Positions 179 through 62,655 of a DNA stretch of 64,000 nucleotides are shown here, piece by piece. The first letter of the stretch is position 1, and every line of letters starts with the position of its first letter. The translations under genes and the position numbers were made by a program. This DNA comes from Parcubacteria group bacterium (GTDB lineage Bacteria; Patescibacteriota; Minisyncoccia; SW-4-49-11), in assembly GCA_943354045.1 (NCBI GenBank), contig CALRBF010000001.1:259860-323859 (forward strand). Reading direction: 5' to 3'. The notes under the pieces are model-generated. The model worked only from the letters and a program-made list of their open reading frames with translations, was not told where the DNA came from and did no database searches.

Positions 179-559
179 TCAGGGAAAAGGATCTCCGTCT
201 ATACCACCTAGGGTGGACAGGGGGTCTACCCCGTCTAGAACATCATGCTCCCACGGATGGATGAGGTCATCATCCGTTTCAACCTTATGCCAACTAGTGA
301 TGGGATTCCATGCCCACAACTCTACCTCATCTCCCTCTCCAAACTTGGAGAATAGACCTCCTCCAGCTATAAGGCGAATTTCTGCCTCAGGATTGAGGCG
401 AGAGAGAAAAAGGCTGGCATCAGAGCCAAGGTATCTTAGCTCCCTGACAAAACATTTTCCTCCATTGAACTCTTTTCTTAGAGCATCAATTACTAAATCA
501 ATAGCCGAATGTGATGAAGGATGCATTAGGAATATGCAACAACTAGACAAGTAAAGCAT
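179..559 (-). CDS. Hypothetical small protein; the local segment is GC-richer than the genome
   Basis: 126-aa ORF with its own terminator; the opposite-strand ORF 213..554 is low-complexity S/R-rich and probably spurious; no domain recognised. Confidence 0.4.
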   Translation of the reverse strand: MLYLSSCCIFLMHPSSHSAIDLVIDALRKEFNGGKCFVRELRYLGSDASLFLSRLNPEAEIRLIAGGGLFSKFGEGDEVELWAWNPITSWHKVETDDDLIHPWEHDVLDGVDPLSTLGGIDGDPFP

Positions 560-3930: not shown

Positions 3931-4179
3931 TGCACTATAAGTAATATTTACATACCCCCAGGCCATAGTAGGCCTACAGAAGAAATTTATACGGTTAGTG
4001 AGCTTAGACAAATATTGAAATCACCCCATGAAACCATAAAGCAATTTGATGGGAATAATAGCTTCATTATAGACCTCAGGGAAAAACACTACCCCCCACA
4101 GAACATTCCCCCGACTCTGCAGCGATGCAGAGTCTTTCTTTACTCAAAAATACTCTCAAAAATTTAATTTTATATACAC

Positions 4180-5175
4180 TTACTTTTTCTGAAGTTTACT
4201 TTCTAGTTGATTTATAGTATCCAGATAAGATTGTTCTACTGGGCTTAGAGTTTTTTGCTGATATTTTTTATATTCATCTTGAGCTTTTTGCATTGCTTCT
4301 TTACTACTAATTTTACCTGCATTTCGTAAGACTTCTTCCCCTGTAGCCAACAAAATACTATCTAAATGGTCTGCCCAATCTTGCATCTTCATTGGGACTT
4401 GTCTTTCTGCTTGTCTTTCAGCAAAGTCTAGATATCCTGAGACTATTTGACCCAATGCTCTTAATTCTTTTTCATCTAGATAATTTTTAGCTATTGAGAT
4501 ATCTTGTAATTGCGGGGTATTCCCAGTAAAGGTAGTGAGTCCCATAAATTCTTTTTCCGCATCAGCTCGATTATAAATCACTTCAGCTGCAGTTTGTTTA
4601 TGTACTGCATAATGTATTTTGTTCTGGACTTTTTTGAAAAATTCAATTGAAGTTTTATTATTAGCATCATAATCTATACTTGTTGCATAGATATCTAATA
4701 TCTGTCTATAAAAAACTTTCTCACTAGCTCGAATATTTCGTATACGGGTTAGCAATTCTTTCCAATAATTACCTCCGCCTAGATTTTTGAGCCTCTCATC
4801 ATCCATCGTGAAGCCTTTGAGTATATATTCTTTTAACCTTTGAGTTGCCCAAATTCTAAATTGAGTGGCTATTTTGCTATTAACTCTATAACCTACAGCG
4901 ATAATCATATCTAGATTATAATATGCAATTTCACGATTAACCTCTCTAGTACCTTCTTTTTGAACTATCCGGAAATTCCGGACAGTTGATATCTCGGCTA
5001 ATTCCTGAGTTTTATAGATATTTTGTATATGTTCACTAATAGTTCTGACATCAACTTCAAAAAGTTCTGCCATTAATTTTTGAGATAACCAAATCGTCTC
5101 ATCCTCTATAAAAACATTCAACTTTACCGCTCCATTGGAATCTGTATACAATATAAAGTTGTTTTGCTCAGTCAT
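4180..5175 (-). CDS. RhuM-family (virulence-associated, Fic/DOC-neighbourhood type) protein
   Basis: 331 aa; N-terminal block 'TIWLSQKLMAELFEVDVRTISEHIQNIY...IAVGYRVNSKIATQFRIWATQ' is typical of PF13310-like RhuM proteins; flanked by direct repeat copies. Confidence 0.6.
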   Translation of the reverse strand: MTEQNNFILYTDSNGAVKLNVFIEDETIWLSQKLMAELFEVDVRTISEHIQNIYKTQELAEISTVRNFRIVQKEGTREVNREIAYYNLDMIIAVGYRVNSKIATQFRIWATQRLKEYILKGFTMDDERLKNLGGGNYWKELLTRIRNIRASEKVFYRQILDIYATSIDYDANNKTSIEFFKKVQNKIHYAVHKQTAAEVIYNRADAEKEFMGLTTFTGNTPQLQDISIAKNYLDEKELRALGQIVSGYLDFAERQAERQVPMKMQDWADHLDSILLATGEEVLRNAGKISSKEAMQKAQDEYKKYQQKTLSPVEQSYLDTINQLESKLQKK

Positions 5176-30503: not shown

Positions 30504-30932
30504 TTATACTCTTCTTGGCTTACGGGCACGGGTTCCATTATGAGGAACTGGAGTCAAATCTTTAATAGACAAGATATTTAGTCCAGCTGCTGCAAGCCCT
30601 CGAATAGAAGCTTCTCTTCCTGGTCCTACACCTTTAATAATAACCTTAATATCCTCAAGCCCAGTTTTCTTTACTTTTTCTACTACTGTTTTTGCAACAA
30701 GAGTAGCAGCATATGGAGTTGCTTTTTTAGCACCTTTGAATCCAAGGGCTCCAGAGGAAGACCATGCAAGAGTATTTCCTGAAAGATCAGCTAAAGAAAC
30801 CATAGTATTATTATATGTAGAAATAATATACCCGATTCCTCGAGATACTTTTTTCTTAGATGAAGTTTCCTTTACCCCGACTTTTAGTCCAGATGCTGTA
30901 TCTCCCTTCTGTGCAACGCGCTTCTTTCCCAT
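30504..30932 (-). CDS. rpsK: 30S ribosomal protein S11
   Basis: Conserved S11 sequence. Confidence 0.92.
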   Translation of the reverse strand: MGKKRVAQKGDTASGLKVGVKETSSKKKVSRGIGYIISTYNNTMVSLADLSGNTLAWSSSGALGFKGAKKATPYAATLVAKTVVEKVKKTGLEDIKVIIKGVGPGREASIRGLAAAGLNILSIKDLTPVPHNGTRARKPRRV

Positions 30933-30949
30933 AAATACTTATTTAATGA

Positions 30950-31333
30950 TTATGTCTTCTCTACTTTTCGTCGTCCACTACCCATGGTTCGAACAACATT
31001 TCCACGAATAGTTCGAGAGTTAGTTTTGGTTCGGCCCTTAATTGGAAGTTTTTTGGCATGCCGACTTCCTCGATATGATCCAATATCCTTAAGTCTCTTG
31101 ATATTAGTAGCGACTTCTCTTCGAAGATCTCCTTCAATTTTATAATTTTTTTCAATACACTCTTTTAGTAAAGCAACTTCTTTTTCATCTAATTCTTTAG
31201 CTTTCTTATAAGGATCAATACCGGTTATAGCCAAAACTTTTTGTGAACGAGTTAACCCAACACCATATATGTAGGTGAGTGCAATTTCAACATTTTTATA
31301 CTCTGGGATGACAACTCCTGCAATTCTAACCAT
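30950..31333 (-). CDS. rpsM: 30S ribosomal protein S13
   Basis: 'MVRIAGVVIPEYK'. Confidence 0.92.
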   Translation of the reverse strand: MVRIAGVVIPEYKNVEIALTYIYGVGLTRSQKVLAITGIDPYKKAKELDEKEVALLKECIEKNYKIEGDLRREVATNIKRLKDIGSYRGSRHAKKLPIKGRTKTNSRTIRGNVVRTMGSGRRKVEKT

Positions 31334-57750: not shown

Positions 57751-59754
57751 TTACCATTCCGAATCATAATCAGTATAAGTGAGCGACAATTGCTCCAAAA
57801 GATGATCTGGTATCTCAGTAATAAATCGTGAAGAAGGATTGGATTGAATTTGCCCAAATATACGCCTCAGCTGAGTATATGTCATATACAGCTTATCCTT
57901 GGCTCTAGTAATACCAACATAACACAGTCGACGCTCTTCCTCTAATTCTTTATGCGAGATGAGACTTCGGGAGTGGGGGAGTATACCTTCTTCCATACCA
58001 ATCATAAATACTACCGGAAATTCCAACCCCTTAGCTGCATGATAAGTCATCAAAGTAACAGCTTGAGTAGCCTGCATTCCATCAATATCGGATAATAATG
58101 CAGTTTCTTGCAAGAATTCATATAAAGCCTCCTCCACAGGGAGATTATCAAATTTCTGCGTTACCGTGAATAATTCTTCAATATATTCCATTCTAGCTTC
58201 ATTTTCTTTGCTTTTTTCCCAATGGCTAGTATATTGGGTGATTTTCAAGATATCTGCCACCAGCTGAGATAATGTATATTTATCTCTCTCAAAAGCCCCC
58301 TTAAGCTCAAAAATTTGCTCGCAGAAGACCATTATTCCTCTTCGGGCTCCTCCAGTTATCTTCAGAGAATATTTATCCGTATGGGTCAATAATTCGAGCA
58401 AATCGATATTTTGCTCATTTTCATTGCTCAATGAATAGGCTTCAAGGATTTTATCAATACTAGTCTTACCAACTGATCGCTTTGGCACATTGATAATACG
58501 CCGAAAAGAAGCCGTATCATTGGTATTATATAAGAATTTGAGATAGGCCAAAAGATCTTTGATTTCGGCTCTCTCATAGAATTTGGTACCCCCTACAATT
58601 TGATAGGGAATTCTCATCTGCAAAAAGGCTTCTTCCAAAGCTCGAGATTGCGCATTGGTGCGATACAGACAAGCAAATCCTGACAAAGTATATTTACCTC
58701 TAGCCACCAAGTCTTTGATGGTGCGAGCCACGAATAAACTTTCCTGATACTCATTTTCCGCCTCTACCAAATGAATTAATTCTCCTGATTCTTTATCTGT
58801 CCACAAATTTTTATCCTTTTTTTGGGTATTTTTATCGATAACCTGATTGGCAGCATCCAGAATAATTTGGGTAGAGCGATAATTCTGCTCTAATAGCACA
58901 ACTTTAGTATCTTTATAATCTTTTTCAAAATTAAGAATATTCTTAAAATCCGCTCCTCTCCAAGAATAAATTGCCTGAAAGTCGTCCCCAACCACACAAA
59001 GATTCTTATACTTATGCGCCAATAATTTTACCAATTCATATTGAGCCTGATTGGTATCCTGATACTCATCAATCATAATATAACGGTATCTATCCTGATA
59101 ACGCGCAAGTACATCTGCAAATTCCTTGAATAATATTACCGTATTCATAATAATATCATCAAAATCCATGGCATTATTCTTCCGTAATTGCTTCTGATAT
59201 TCTTGATATAATTCAATAGCCAATTCCTCTAGGGGAGTAGTAGGATTATAGTCAGCAAATTGACTGGCAGTAATGAGATTATTCTTAGCCTTAGAGATAA
59301 TATATTGTATGGAAGCTGGTTTCACCTGATCTTTGGGGATATCTCGTTTTTTGAGCAAATCCTTGATAATATTCTGACTATCAGTAGTATCATAAATCAA
59401 AAATGACTTATCATACCCCAAAGCCTCAGCCTCTCGATGTAATATATTCAGACAAACGGAGTGAAAAGTCCCCACCATAGGCATAGCGGGCACATTGTCC
59501 CCAAAAGAAGTCTCAAGCAAATGTTTGATTCGCTCCTTCATCTCTTTTGCCGCCTTATTAGTAAAGGTTACCGCCAATATACTATAAGGGGAAATTCCCT
59601 GAGCAATCATATAGGCAATACGCTTGGTAAGCGTAGAGGTCTTCCCTGAACCCGCTCCAGCTAATACCAAAACAGGACCTTCTATGGTCTGGGCTGCTTC
59701 CAATTGTTTGTCATTAAGTCCTTGTAGAATAGGATGAATTTTGTCTTTTGGCAT
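57751..59754 (-). CDS. uvrD: ATP-dependent DNA helicase UvrD/PcrA
   Basis: 'LAGAGSGKTSTLTKRIAYMI' Walker A; helicase motifs 'DEYQDTN', 'VGDDFQAIYSWRGA', 'TYHAAKGLEFPVVF'. Confidence 0.9.
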   Translation of the reverse strand: MPKDKIHPILQGLNDKQLEAAQTIEGPVLVLAGAGSGKTSTLTKRIAYMIAQGISPYSILAVTFTNKAAKEMKERIKHLLETSFGDNVPAMPMVGTFHSVCLNILHREAEALGYDKSFLIYDTTDSQNIIKDLLKKRDIPKDQVKPASIQYIISKAKNNLITASQFADYNPTTPLEELAIELYQEYQKQLRKNNAMDFDDIIMNTVILFKEFADVLARYQDRYRYIMIDEYQDTNQAQYELVKLLAHKYKNLCVVGDDFQAIYSWRGADFKNILNFEKDYKDTKVVLLEQNYRSTQIILDAANQVIDKNTQKKDKNLWTDKESGELIHLVEAENEYQESLFVARTIKDLVARGKYTLSGFACLYRTNAQSRALEEAFLQMRIPYQIVGGTKFYERAEIKDLLAYLKFLYNTNDTASFRRIINVPKRSVGKTSIDKILEAYSLSNENEQNIDLLELLTHTDKYSLKITGGARRGIMVFCEQIFELKGAFERDKYTLSQLVADILKITQYTSHWEKSKENEARMEYIEELFTVTQKFDNLPVEEALYEFLQETALLSDIDGMQATQAVTLMTYHAAKGLEFPVVFMIGMEEGILPHSRSLISHKELEEERRLCYVGITRAKDKLYMTYTQLRRIFGQIQSNPSSRFITEIPDHLLEQLSLTYTDYDSEW

Positions 59755-59924
59755 TATATATCAATATTATATTTTTTCTTTTGTACGGATAATTGTGGAG
59801 GCTCCAAGCAGACTCGCACTGCTGTAGAGGGTTTTGCAGACCCTTGCCTAACTTCTCGGCCATGGAGCCAATTACGGCTTTTAGTATAGCATAGATTCAG
59901 TTTTTAGGGAAATGATAGGAGAAA

Positions 59925-59958
59925 GAAAAAGCCCACCGTCCGAAGAGGTGAGCTGGGG
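59925..59958 (-). terminator. Terminator of small acidic gene 1 (shared terminator type)
   Basis: Minus-strand hairpin from 'cccagctcacctcttcggacggtgggc' followed by T5; same 'gcccaccgtccgaaga' core as 62074-62100. Confidence 0.5.
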
Positions 59959-59975: not shown

Positions 59976-60272
59976 CTAGACTTCTCGAGGCATATCCTTG
60001 AGGATACGCTCGCGGGAAGATAGAGCTCCTGGTCTCAAAGATTCCATACAGTCAAGAACTGCTTGACTCAACCCCACCAGAAAATTTATCCCTTCGGGAC
60101 TCAACTCCTCAGAGAGAGGCATCTCGGGGTCCATCGGGTCCATCGAATCAATGAGGTCTATGGCATCAGTAGCCTCTGGAATCACAAAATTTCGATCAAC
60201 AAAGGCTTCGAGCGCTCGCTCGGCAAACCCTTCATTAAGTGCAGAGTCTAACTCTTCTTGGGAAATGGACAT
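59976..60272 (-). CDS. Small acidic protein (paralogue family member 1), GC-rich
   Basis: 98 aa, D/E/P-rich; consensus promoter 17 nt upstream; paralogous context to 62132..62281. Confidence 0.45.
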   Translation of the reverse strand: MSISQEELDSALNEGFAERALEAFVDRNFVIPEATDAIDLIDSMDPMDPEMPLSEELSPEGINFLVGLSQAVLDCMESLRPGALSSRERILKDMPREV

Positions 60273-60295: not shown

Positions 60296-60324
60296 ACCAT
60301 ACCACATTTTTCTAATTTTGTCAA
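60296..60324 (-). promoter_or_regulatory. Strong sigma70-type promoter of small acidic gene 1
   Basis: Minus strand TTGACA (60324-60319), 17 nt, tgg-TATGGT (60301-60296); homologous to 62304-62332. Confidence 0.55.
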
Positions 60325-60371
60325 TATGTTTTGTGTTTTTGCTATAATGCTTATCTCTATTTTATAAACAT

Positions 60372-60515
60372 AATAGCTTATTTACTTATTTTTATATAAT
60401 TTTATATTTTACTATTATGTTATGTTTTATTATTATACATTTTAAATTTCGTAGTGCTTTAAGTCCCTCCTAAATAAATATAGGAGGGGGCGACCTTTCA
60501 GTCGCCCGAAACCTA
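60372..60515. repeat. AT-rich about 70-nt block duplicated at 62381-62450, plus a GC-rich repeat (m2 + m3)
   Basis: 'aatagcttatttacttatttttatataattttatatttt...' matches 62381+; 'gctttaagtccctcctaaataaatataggagggggcgacctttcagtcgccc'. Confidence 0.65.
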
Positions 60516-60597
60516 ACCCCAAAACTTGACAAAAAAACACTACTATTATAAAATATATTTACATTTGGCGTTAGCCACGTCCCTCGTTTACGAGGGC

Positions 60598-60996
60598 TCA
60601 TTGATAAAGATTTATAAATCCTTCTTTTACTTTAGCAAAATCTATTTCATTCAAAGACCCCATTTTGTTATGCCGTCTCCTATAATCAATTGTTCTGACC
60701 TGCTGTAAACAAGCTGTTATTCTCTTACCTTGATATTCATAGGCCACATACCAAGTACCTGTTTTATTTTTGGTAGTTGTAGGAATAACCAAATATGTCC
60801 ATTTACTTAATCTTTTTAATATAATAACTGGTCTAGAAAACTTATCTCCCTTACCGCTGACTTCTGTTCCAATATTCTCTCCTAATTGACACCACCAAAT
60901 ATCTCGTTCTTTGACAAATGGAGCTTTGTGATTACTTTTATCTAACTTAGATTTTAATACTAACCATTCCTTAAATCTTTTGATAAATTTTTGCAT
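60598..60996 (-). CDS. MazF/PemK-family endoribonuclease toxin-like protein; no antitoxin ORF evident
   Basis: 'ERDIWWCQLGENIGTEVSGKGDKFSRPVIILKR...YLVIPTTTK' matches the MazF/PemK core; surrounded by repeats. Confidence 0.55.
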   Translation of the reverse strand: MQKFIKRFKEWLVLKSKLDKSNHKAPFVKERDIWWCQLGENIGTEVSGKGDKFSRPVIILKRLSKWTYLVIPTTTKNKTGTWYVAYEYQGKRITACLQQVRTIDYRRRHNKMGSLNEIDFAKVKEGFINLYQ

Positions 60997-61054
60997 ATAG
61001 TATTGATATAATTTGTATAGATTATATCTTAACTAAAGCTATGTGTATAGGAGG

Positions 61055-61440
61055 AGGACGGGGTGGAATGTTCTGTATTCGTAGGGCTTTAAGTCCCTCC
61101 TATATTTATTTAGGAGGGGGCGACCTCTCAATCGCCCGTGGTATTATTGTCTCCCTTTTGGGGTAGTTTATTATTGTCCTCCTTTGGAGGAGGTGGATAG
61201 TTATTAAAGTTGTATTCTAGTTTTTGAATAAAATTTAGTAATATACTTTATCCACCCTCCCCCTACGGGTACTCCCTCCAAAGGGAGACAAAAATACAGT
61301 CCACACCCGTCACTTCGTGACACCCTCGCCAGCGAGGCCTGCCTGCGGTAGGCAGGGACAGTTTTTGTCCTCCCTTGGGGGACATTAAAACCCTCCACCC
61401 CGTCAGGCAAGCCTGCCACCCCCTCCCAAACTCTATGCTA
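61055..61440. repeat. Largest composite of mosaic palindromic repeat modules (m2, m3, variable-loop 'ggtggata...tatccacc' hairpin, m4, inverted m1, 'ccaccccgtcagg')
   Basis: Modules seen directly and shared with 46520-46745, 52320-52600 and 62455-62650. Confidence 0.75.
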
Positions 61441-61470: not shown

Positions 61471-62070
61471 ATGCCCAAGCTCAAATCATCAACCTATACT
61501 TTCTCCCCCCTACAGGAGGGGACTTTGCCTTTTGATGCCAATAGCAAGCGCAATGTAACAGATCAATTAGCTTGGGCTAAAAGAGAGGATATTCTAGAGA
61601 CTATTAACCCACATAAAATCCCTATATCGCTCTTACTCGTGAATATTGACCGGGATAATAATATTGGTAATATAATCAGATCAGCTAATACTTTCGGGGT
61701 GCAGGAGGTGCTAATTTATGGCAGGAAAAAATTTGACCGTAGAACTAGTGTTGGAGCTGAATTTTTTATGCAATTTTGGCATATTCGCTTTGTTGAGGAG
61801 TTAGAGACTCTACAACAAGAATTTGATATTATACTCGGATTAGAACAAACCTCTGATTCAGTAGAATTACATAGCTATCAATGGCCTCAAAATGCTAAAA
61901 TACTAATTGCTATTGGGCATGAGGGTACTGGGCTTCCCCAAGAAATACTGGATATTTGTGATACTACCCTTGAGATTGAGCAATACGGCACCACCAGATC
62001 CCTGAATGTATCAGTTGCTACAGGGATTGTACTATATGATTATCGGGTGAAAAGAGAGTTAGTAAAGTAA
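61471..62070 (+). CDS. TrmH/SpoU-family RNA 2'-O-methyltransferase
   Basis: SPOUT motifs 'LLLVNIDRDNNIGNIIRSANTFG', 'IAIGHEGTGL', 'LNVSVATGIVLY'. Confidence 0.75.
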   Translation: MPKLKSSTYTFSPLQEGTLPFDANSKRNVTDQLAWAKREDILETINPHKIPISLLLVNIDRDNNIGNIIRSANTFGVQEVLIYGRKKFDRRTSVGAEFFMQFWHIRFVEELETLQQEFDIILGLEQTSDSVELHSYQWPQNAKILIAIGHEGTGLPQEILDICDTTLEIEQYGTTRSLNVSVATGIVLYDYRVKRELVK

Positions 62071-62100
62071 AAAGCCCACCGTCCGAAGACGGGGGCTGGG
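62069..62100 (-). terminator. Terminator of small acidic gene 2
   Basis: Minus strand 'cccagcccccgtcttcggacggtgggc' followed by T5. Confidence 0.55.
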
Positions 62101-62303: not shown

Positions 62304-62332
62304 TATATACCACATTTCCTTAATTTTATCAA
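62304..62332 (-). promoter_or_regulatory. Strong sigma70-type promoter of small acidic gene 2
   Basis: Minus strand TTGATA (62332-62327), 17 nt, tgg-TATATA (62309-62304). Confidence 0.55.
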
Positions 62333-62454
62333 TACATCTTGTGATTTAATCATAATATCCACCCTTACTTTATCAATTTAATAGCTTATTTACTTGTTTT
62401 TATATAATATTATATTTTGATATTACTTTATGTTTCATCCTGAATAATTTTGAC

Positions 62455-62655
62455 TTTCGTATGGCTTTTGTCCTAAAATTCCCCTCTTGAGGGGTGTCAT
62501 ATTTACCTGACGGGGTGGAAAAGAAAATATTCATAAATAATACAGAAACACTCCACCCCGTCTTCCTGCTATGTAAACATGGCAGGAATCCACCCCTCAA
62601 CGAGGGGAATTTAACTCAATCCACCTGCTATCGATAAAAAGGGAGGACAAAATAA
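62455..62655. repeat. MITE-like nested palindromic element with about 30-nt imperfect terminal inverted repeats
   Basis: Left end 'ttttgtcctaaaattcccctcttgaggggtg'; right end is the reverse complement 'cacccctcaacgaggggaattt...gggaggacaaaataa'; inner inverted repeat 'tgacggggtgga...tccaccccgtc'. Confidence 0.6.

Follow-up and report, generated by a model that had tools for sequence, protein, structure and literature searches.

Results

Identification of a MazF-family toxin gene

We analyzed a 64,000-nucleotide stretch of DNA from a Parcubacteria group bacterium (hereafter the window, which means the whole stretch at its full length), focusing on a MazF/PemK-family toxin gene (60598–60996, minus strand) and on a predicted small RNA gene that converges on it from the opposite strand. 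The toxin gene starts with ATG and encodes a protein of 132 amino acids (aa), which contains the peptide quoted by a sequence-only reading of this DNA that had placed a MazF/PemK-like open reading frame (ORF) at 60598–60996. A profile search confirmed this assignment, as PF02452 (PemK_toxin) matched residues 30–128 of the protein with 41.7 bits (E 1.5e-10) against a gathering cutoff of 23.1 bits. The MazF model of NCBIfam also matched the protein weakly, and PF02452 was present in 31 of the 31 homologues examined.

A profile of 19 family members was compared with solved structures and matched the MazF proteins of Bacillus subtilis (EndoA), Staphylococcus aureus, Bacillus anthracis, and Escherichia coli (E 4e-6 to 8e-3), with E ~5e-6 for EndoA and for the S. 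aureus protein. The catalytic pair used for comparison was Arg25/Thr48 in B. subtilis MazF and Arg29/Thr52 in E. coli MazF. In the 19-member profile alignment, the catalytic Arg25-Pro26 of B. subtilis MazF had R55-P56 as its counterpart in the window protein, and the region of Thr48 was matched by the P72-T-T-T motif. R55 was invariant and P56 and P72 were nearly invariant in an alignment of 94 sequences, and T73 was invariant in the alignment of 19 sequences. Structure prediction by AlphaFold from 19 sequences resulted in a predicted local distance difference test score (pLDDT) of 58, which was unusable, and the 94-sequence alignment was used instead, yielding a model with a pLDDT of 95.2. 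This model consists of an N-terminal helix (residues 8–20), followed by a beta barrel and a C-terminal helix. The N-terminal extension (residues ~1–29) thus precedes the MazF barrel and is basic, with 9 K/R versus 2 D/E in the first 29 residues. In a Foldseek search against the PDB, all 50 best matches were MazF toxins with target-normalized template modeling (TM) scores of 0.66–0.81, led by those of S. aureus, B. subtilis, B. anthracis, Mycobacterium tuberculosis, and E. coli (0.72–0.81). Because the analyses by Pfam, PDB profile, AlphaFold, and Foldseek all agreed, the product of 60598–60996 is judged to be a bona fide member of the MazF family, in which the active site is intact and endoribonuclease activity is predicted.

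Search for a protein partner

The close family of the window protein comprises relatives of 128–135 aa with an identity of 50–60% to it, and at a cutoff of E<=1e-10, the wider family amounts to 1,665 clusters (50% identity). We fetched 80 genomic loci of homologues, nearly all of which were from metagenome-assembled genomes (MAGs) of Patescibacteria, also known as the candidate phyla radiation (CPR), and a small number of which were alphaproteobacterial, Hyphomicrobium and Methylocystis being among them; Bradyrhizobium also encodes a homologue. Two MAG copies (L002 and L003) were 89% identical to the window protein and were present in wholly different gene neighborhoods.

To find a partner, ORFs of 35–250 aa within 400 bp of the 80 homologues were collected, the resulting 570 neighboring ORFs were clustered, and same-strand ORFs within 80 bp of the homologues were inspected individually. 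No recurring neighbor protein family was found among them except for MazF paralogues. No antitoxin gene of the MazE/PemI, AbrB, or ribbon-helix-helix type recurred adjacent to the toxin gene in the 80 loci, and there was no candidate ORF for one in the window. The sequence-only reading had noted that no antitoxin-sized ORF lies upstream of the toxin gene, and indeed no canonical antitoxin gene was found there: the only minus-strand ORFs above the toxin gene were one of 30 aa starting with TTG (61039–61131) and one of 71 aa starting with GTG (61204–61419), both of which cross GC-rich repeats and neither of which is conserved. For small ORFs in 60520–60597, which that reading had suggested checking, the result was different in kind. 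A 43-aa ORF (60470–60601), which overlaps the toxin stop codon by ATGA, proved to be an artefact as a partner, with a conserved RNA gene (~60526–60600, plus strand) being there instead. Since the look-alike downstream peptides of other loci are in different reading frames, the conservation is at the level of the nucleotides and not of a protein. Taken together, this subfamily has no conserved protein partner.

A convergent small RNA gene adjoining the toxin stop codon

A conserved noncoding block was found directly after the toxin stop codon, on the opposite strand, in essentially every one of the 80 loci. On that strand, it reads TTGACA, a spacer usually of 16–17 nt, a TATAAT-like box, 5 nt, and (T/C)ACATTCGG..., after which come a hairpin of 4–5 bp, a CG(N) linker, a GC-rich hairpin of 6–9 bp, and an A/U-rich stretch in which the toxin stop codon is located. 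In the window, the putative promoter of this RNA (60526–60554, plus strand), which is close to the sigma-70 consensus, is composed of TTGACA (60526–60531), a 17-nt spacer, and TAAAAT (60549–60554), and it was the best promoter-like site in the region with 11/12 matches. Of the 71 sequences compared, 54 had the -10 box and 59 the -35 box in exactly the same place, and 45 had a spacer of 16 or 17 nt. Counting from the -10 box, the seventh base is the A of ACATT; with a pyrimidine at -1, this represents a canonical start-site geometry.

The small RNA predicted from the covariance model, the fold energy, and covariation (60561–60600, plus strand) would start at A60561 with an unpaired 5' tail, ACAUU (60561–60565). 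The tail is followed by hairpin 2 (UGGC-GUUA-GCCA, 60566–60577), a CGU linker, and hairpin 1 as the terminator stem (CCCUCG-UUUA-CGAGGG, 60581–60596), which ends one base short of the toxin stop codon (60598–60600). The fold energy in the window was -15.7 kcal/mol (z -3.0). Covariation was assessed in 72 sequences, in which hairpin 2 exhibited the pair swaps CG/UA (64/7), GC/AU (64/8), and GC/CG (45/27), with one mismatch among 288 cells (99.7% paired); for both hairpins, 94% of the cells were paired. The number of double-change cells was 92, compared with 24.1 in shuffles, and none of 500 shuffles reached 92. When the partner strand was slid as a control, the pairing fell to 37–60%. Furthermore, ACAUU, the CG linker, and part of the loop were more than 90% conserved, while the toxins were only ~50% identical. 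A search of Rfam at permissive thresholds found nothing at the RNA element in the window and 10 loci. A sub-threshold match to BSnc120 beside a paralogue in locus L077 was explained by a generic terminator hairpin. Based on these results, we have little doubt that the RNA gene is real.

The U-rich tract 3' of the GC-rich hairpin was present only on the strand of the small RNA, suggesting that the hairpin terminates the small RNA and not the toxin mRNA; a terminator scan of the region found no terminator on the toxin strand. In the window copy itself, the U-tract (UCUUUUUUUU) that is present in L002 and L003 is missing (60597–60612, plus strand), as there is a 6-nt gap relative to them, and the stop codon, now TGA, touches the hairpin, so that the 3' end of the RNA is undefined. 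The toxin ORF, the RNA promoter, and the hairpins of the window copy are otherwise intact.

The toxin gene itself is preceded by a promoter-like site, TATACA-17-TATAAT (61021–61049, minus strand), which had 10/12 matches in the promoter scan and the -10 box of which aligns with that of L002 and L003. The toxin leader in the window is short and has no Shine-Dalgarno sequence. A TATAAT-like box only 6–10 nt before the toxin ATG, again with no Shine-Dalgarno sequence, was also observed in many homologues (loci L011–L081), which suggests that their toxin mRNAs may be leaderless or near-leaderless.

Linkage of the RNA gene with the toxin gene

To evaluate the linkage, a covariance model (R1) was built from the 72 sequences. 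R1 had a single significant match in the window, at 60559–60616 (plus strand), with 41.7 bits and E 5e-7. A match abutting the toxin stop codon was found in 79 of the 80 loci, and also beside extra paralogue copies in the same loci; in the remaining locus, L009, a diverged version of the RNA was visible by eye. In the reverse direction, metagenome and viral collections were scanned with a sequence pattern taken from the 5' portion of the RNA, and the matches, which were mostly due to chance in GC-rich DNA, were filtered with R1. None of the 17 pattern matches in the viral collection was real after this filter. The metagenome collection yielded 24 R1-positive loci, among which 21 had a convergent MazF-like gene (E<=1e-15), 2 were cut by contig ends, and 1 had a different neighbor.

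The extent of the conserved unit could be delineated by comparison with L002 and L003, where homology to the window runs from the -10 box of the toxin gene to just past the -35 box of the RNA gene, with unrelated flanks. Because the homology ends at the two promoters, the sequences indicate that a two-gene unit of ~560 bp is what is conserved and has moved as a whole. In our judgment, a functional coupling of the RNA gene and the toxin is very likely.

Some variants of this arrangement were also observed. L003 (1–6396), from the Paceibacterota MAG P_PACE2, is a 6.4-kb island with four MazF-like paralogues, three of which have a recognizable convergent RNA, and it also holds a gene of the Zeta-toxin family (3934–4755) and a DUF3800 gene. 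This locus has, in addition, two tandem copies of the small RNA (4980–5035 and 5042–5104) without an adjoining toxin gene, which may be orphan antitoxin RNAs or remnants. In L044 (1602–1888 and 1880–1943), a second MazF-like copy is split by a frameshift, being detected by tblastn as two pieces, and its small RNA element is intact, which suggests decay of the toxin gene with retention of the RNA. In L208, a 46-bit match to the small RNA model (439–496, plus strand) faces, in convergent orientation, an ORF without resemblance to MazF; the RNA element may occasionally pair with non-MazF genes.

Relatives in Campylobacterota

A tblastn search of plasmids and phages identified homologues of 33–35% identity with the same N-terminal extension on pVir of Campylobacter jejuni 81-176, on plasmids of Helicobacter and Nitratiruptor, and in CJIE4 prophages. 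The pVir homologue, CJJ81176_pVir0047, is 34% identical to the window protein and matches PF02452, and its coding sequence ends at 31038. A small RNA, CJpv3, is, according to differential RNA sequencing (dRNA-seq), encoded on the strand opposite to pVir0047 (31119->31043, 77 nt) and is positive in Northern blots (Dugar et al, 2013; PMC3656092, Table S12). It ends 5 nt from the stop codon of pVir0047. The signal at the transcription start site (TSS) is 16164 for CJpv3, compared with 28 for that of the mRNA at 30608 (PMC3656092, Table S5), and the pVir0047 mRNA has a mapped leader of 26 nt. The same layout could be read from the sequences of the plasmid loci of Nitratiruptor and H. suis: the -10 box is of the extended type, there are two or three hairpins, and the terminator directly adjoins the stop codon. 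Even when its filters were switched off, R1 did not match the loci of pVir, Nitratiruptor, or H. suis where the RNA would be expected.

Two papers (PMC10470494 and PMC7826846) cite Shen et al (2016; Mol Microbiol 101:909), the source for CjrA/CjpT, with regard to CjrA, which is reported to be the antitoxin of a type I system and to act as an antisense RNA. The former assigns CjrA to strain 81-176, and the latter places it on pVir.

Discussion

Proposed role of the RNA

The sequence-only reading had described the toxin as an orphan of which the partner could be noncanonical or lost. The former part stands, with a convergent RNA gene as the noncanonical candidate, while the notion of an orphan with a lost partner is not supported. 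The convergent RNA is probably the antitoxin, and we lean, with modest confidence, toward a two-gene module of toxin and RNA antitoxin, ~560 bp in length, operating by a type I-like cis-antisense mechanism. In the proposed scheme, the minus-strand gene would have a weak promoter of its own, and its mRNA, leaderless or nearly so, would encode an endoribonuclease of the MazF fold that carries an additional basic helix at the N terminus. On the opposite strand, just past the toxin stop codon, a strong consensus promoter would drive the synthesis of a structured RNA of ~40–50 nt, composed of the 5' ACAUU tail, a hairpin of 4–5 bp, and the GC-rich terminator hairpin, the 3' end of which abuts the toxin stop codon. 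As no terminator follows the toxin gene on its own strand, the toxin mRNA would have to read into the RNA gene and bear the exact complement of the RNA in its 3' untranslated region (UTR). The small RNA could then pair with the 3' end of the toxin mRNA and lower toxin synthesis, possibly via mRNA decay. CjrA on pVir of C. jejuni, classified as an antisense RNA antitoxin, serves as the model for this mechanism. We infer that the RNA is expressed in the source organism, that it neutralizes the toxin, and by which mode it may do so, and that the mode is antisense is proposed only tentatively.

There are several points that weigh against this reading. Duplex energies of the RNA with the ribosome-binding and start region of the toxin gene were no better than those of shuffles (mean z -0.45), and no consistent site was found; an antisense effect would therefore have to act through the 3' UTR alone. 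An RNA acting purely in cis as an antisense has no need of conservation in its primary sequence, so that the conservation of more than 90% in ACAUU, the CG linker, and some loop bases fits protein recognition better. The window copy lacks the terminator U-tract, and owing to the loss of this A/U tract beside the terminator hairpin, its small RNA may terminate poorly and read antisense into the toxin gene. As judged from the sequences, the Campylobacterota RNAs share only the layout and the toxin subfamily and not the RNA sequence. That CjpT is pVir0047 and CjrA is CJpv3 is likely but not confirmed, the alternative being CJpv2/pVir0033. Finally, toxicity and expression in this clade are predictions.

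Some of these points are accommodated by a type III-like mechanism, in which the MazF-like protein would be bound directly by the RNA and its RNA-binding groove thereby blocked, with the 5' ACAUU as an uncleavable mimic of a substrate or product and the basic N-terminal helix holding the hairpins. We consider this mechanism possible but rather unlikely. The toxins of type III systems (ToxN) share the Kid/MazF fold, and B. subtilis MazF, which is the closest solved relative of the window toxin, cuts U^ACAU (PDB 4MDX). The single-stranded ACAUU, the CG linker, and the loop bases are strongly conserved even though the proteins are only ~50% identical, the fixed distance from the -10 box to ACAUU sets an exact 5' end of the RNA, and the N-terminal extension, with its excess of K/R over D/E, is a confidently predicted helix. 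The lack of pairing with the translation-initiation region of the toxin is also in line with this mechanism, as is the excess of the pVir RNA over the mRNA by ~580-fold at the TSS level (PMC3656092). However, no array of tandem repeats is present, and the RNA, unlike that of all known type III systems, is not cotranscribed upstream of the toxin gene; nor do the Campylobacterota relatives have the ACAUU tail. In a motif-avoidance test by synonymous-codon shuffles of 79 toxin genes, neither ACAUU (z -0.9) nor UACAU (z -2.3, rank 54 of 977) was clearly depleted. Moreover, the only studied relative is cited as type I (PMC10470494). In its general form, this idea would mean that a whole branch of the MazF family (~1,700 clusters at 50% identity, throughout Patescibacteria/CPR and in some Alphaproteobacteria) is held in check, in place of MazE, by direct binding of a single-copy and separately transcribed RNA of ~45 nt, the ACAUU of which mimics the cleavage product, and it seems doubtful that this is so. 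If it were true, it would represent a repeat-less and convergent type III-like architecture together with a new RNA family absent from Rfam.

Another explanation, which we regard as improbable, is that the MazF homologue is solitary and is otherwise controlled or nontoxic, and that the RNA prevents read-through as a terminator or insulator, serves the nuclease as a processed substrate or as a cofactor, or is a regulatory RNA that acts in trans and is carried along. Solo toxin homologues are common. A solitary MazF is present in Myxococcus (PMC2701414), and the toxin-less RNA copies in L003 (4980–5104) and the RNA copy beside a different gene in L208 could be taken as support. However, a mere terminator does not need a conserved consensus promoter in a fixed register, the linkage of RNA and toxin is near-absolute in both directions, and the module is conserved as a unit; orphan antitoxin copies are also typical of toxin-antitoxin biology.

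Repeats and neighboring genes

The sequence-only reading had found only repeats upstream of the toxin gene, at 61055–61440. Repeats are indeed present there, although they do not qualify as a partner, being copies of hairpin elements that are scattered across the window and form no tandem array. Their core is GCTTTAAGTCCCTCCTA..TAGGAGGGGG, and GCTTTAAGTCCCTCCTA occurs 8 times in the window versus 0 expected (5278, 5936, 27543, 36018, 50205, 52376, 60456, and 61086), always in intergenic regions. These are GC-rich hairpin repeats in an AT-rich genome, and they are combined in modules with GGCGACC..GTCGCC, CCTGCCT..AGGCAGG, and GTCCTCC..GGAGGA hairpins; hairpins like GGCGAC..GTCGCC also adjoin homologues in L002 and L012. 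Two 61-nt direct repeat copies bracket the toxin/RNA module. The copy on the RNA side (60448–60508; direct repeat D2) is 89% identical to that on the side of the toxin promoter (61078–61138), and both are outside the module, the L002/L003 homology stopping before the latter. Tandem Repeats Finder detected no tandem arrays in the window and none that recurred in the flanks of the 80 loci. Because the two promoters form the exact ends of the module and the flanks differ between genomes, the repeat-rich setting is incidental to the module. The idea that the repeats at 61055–61440, lying directly upstream of a gene for a toxin of the Kid/MazF fold, encode a ToxI-like repeat RNA antitoxin of a classical type III system is hardly credible, as they are dispersed at 8 or more sites of the window and not tandem, the homologous loci have no upstream arrays, and the homology with the closest relatives ends before the repeats.

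On the other side, 325 nt downstream of the toxin gene, there is an ORF for an acidic protein of 98 aa (59976–60272, minus strand; 22 D/E versus 7 K/R), in agreement with the small acidic protein described by the sequence-only reading. It has its own promoter-like site at 60324–60296. The protein had no match in Pfam, NCBIfam, PADLOC, or PHROG, and no homologue in the other ~220 fetched loci. It is small and acidic and encoded on the same strand as the toxin, and that reading had called its acidic nature antitoxin-like but its position and separate promoter atypical; that it is a displaced protein antitoxin is nevertheless most implausible, given its separation from the toxin gene by the RNA gene and a repeat, its own promoter-like site, the lack of a family match, and the absence of a homologue even from L002 and L003, where the 89%-identical copies are in other contexts. 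A gene for tRNA-Cys (GCA) (59796–59869, minus strand) is located between this ORF and a gene for a UvrD/PcrA-like helicase (57751–59754). An AT-rich direct repeat of 162 nt with an identity of 75% is present upstream of the acidic ORF (60299–60460) and ~2 kb away (62307–62468). A 32-nt repeat, AAAAAGCCCACCGTCCGAAGA.G.G.GCTGGG, with an identity of 91%, is present at the 3' ends of the acidic ORF (59926–59957) and of a SpoU methylase gene (62069–62100), and it looks like a shared terminator-type hairpin.

Significance

MazF is a textbook type II toxin, and databases label the members of this subfamily as "type II toxin-antitoxin system PemK/MazF family toxin". Because of this type II annotation, standard searches would score them as orphans. 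If the RNA is the partner, tallies of orphan toxins in the reduced genomes of CPR bacteria would be misleading, and a new and easily recognized RNA family could be annotated in hundreds of genomes. The toxin family itself is known, and an RNA partner for the subfamily probably has one published precedent, in Campylobacter. The near-universal pairing of toxin and RNA across Patescibacteria and Alphaproteobacteria and the conserved ACAUU-hairpin RNA family absent from Rfam, with the possibility of direct inhibition of a true MazF by RNA, are not described in the literature as far as searched. As the carriers include culturable Alphaproteobacteria, it should be directly testable whether the RNA can restrain a MazF nuclease.

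Comparison with known systems

The module resembles type II systems (mazEF, pemIK, and kis-kid) in the toxin fold, the catalytic Arg and Thr, and the Pfam family, whereas it differs from them in having no upstream gene of the MazE/PemI type in the 80 loci, an extra basic N-terminal helix, and a downstream RNA gene on the opposite strand as the partner. With type III systems (ToxIN, CptIN, and TenpIN), it shares a toxin of the Kid/MazF class of endoribonucleases and a partner that would be an RNA and not a protein, and the conserved RNA sequence suggests protein recognition. However, the RNA of the present module is without tandem repeats, is not upstream of the toxin gene, and is not cotranscribed with it, being a single, convergent unit with its own promoter and terminator, and the window toxin is by sequence a MazF proper and not ToxN/AbiQ.

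The layout also resembles that of type I systems such as txpA/RatA and bsrG/SR4 of B. subtilis and par (Fst, RNAI/RNAII) of Enterococcus faecalis, in which a convergent RNA has its own strong promoter and lies at the 3' end of the toxin gene, overlapping it or sharing its terminator, with a terminator hairpin at the junction of toxin and RNA. The toxins of these systems are small hydrophobic peptides, in contrast to the window toxin, which is a predicted soluble RNase of 132 aa. A small hydrophobic peptide is the usual, although not universal, toxin in type I systems. The RNA of the present module is, in addition, much shorter than theirs, conserved in sequence across phyla, and without complementarity to the translation-initiation region of the toxin.

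The closest parallel is pVir0047/CJpv3, which likewise has a MazF homologue with an N-terminal extension, a convergent small RNA that ends a few bases from the stop codon, and no adjacent gene for a protein antitoxin; in the window, the RNA hairpin ends at 60596 and the toxin stop codon is at 60598–60600. CJpv3 differs in being 77 nt in length with three hairpins, in lacking the ACAUU tail, and in having no detectable sequence similarity to the RNA of the window. Furthermore, the pVir copy is plasmid-borne in Campylobacterota, whereas the window copy is apparently chromosomal in a Patescibacteria-like genome.

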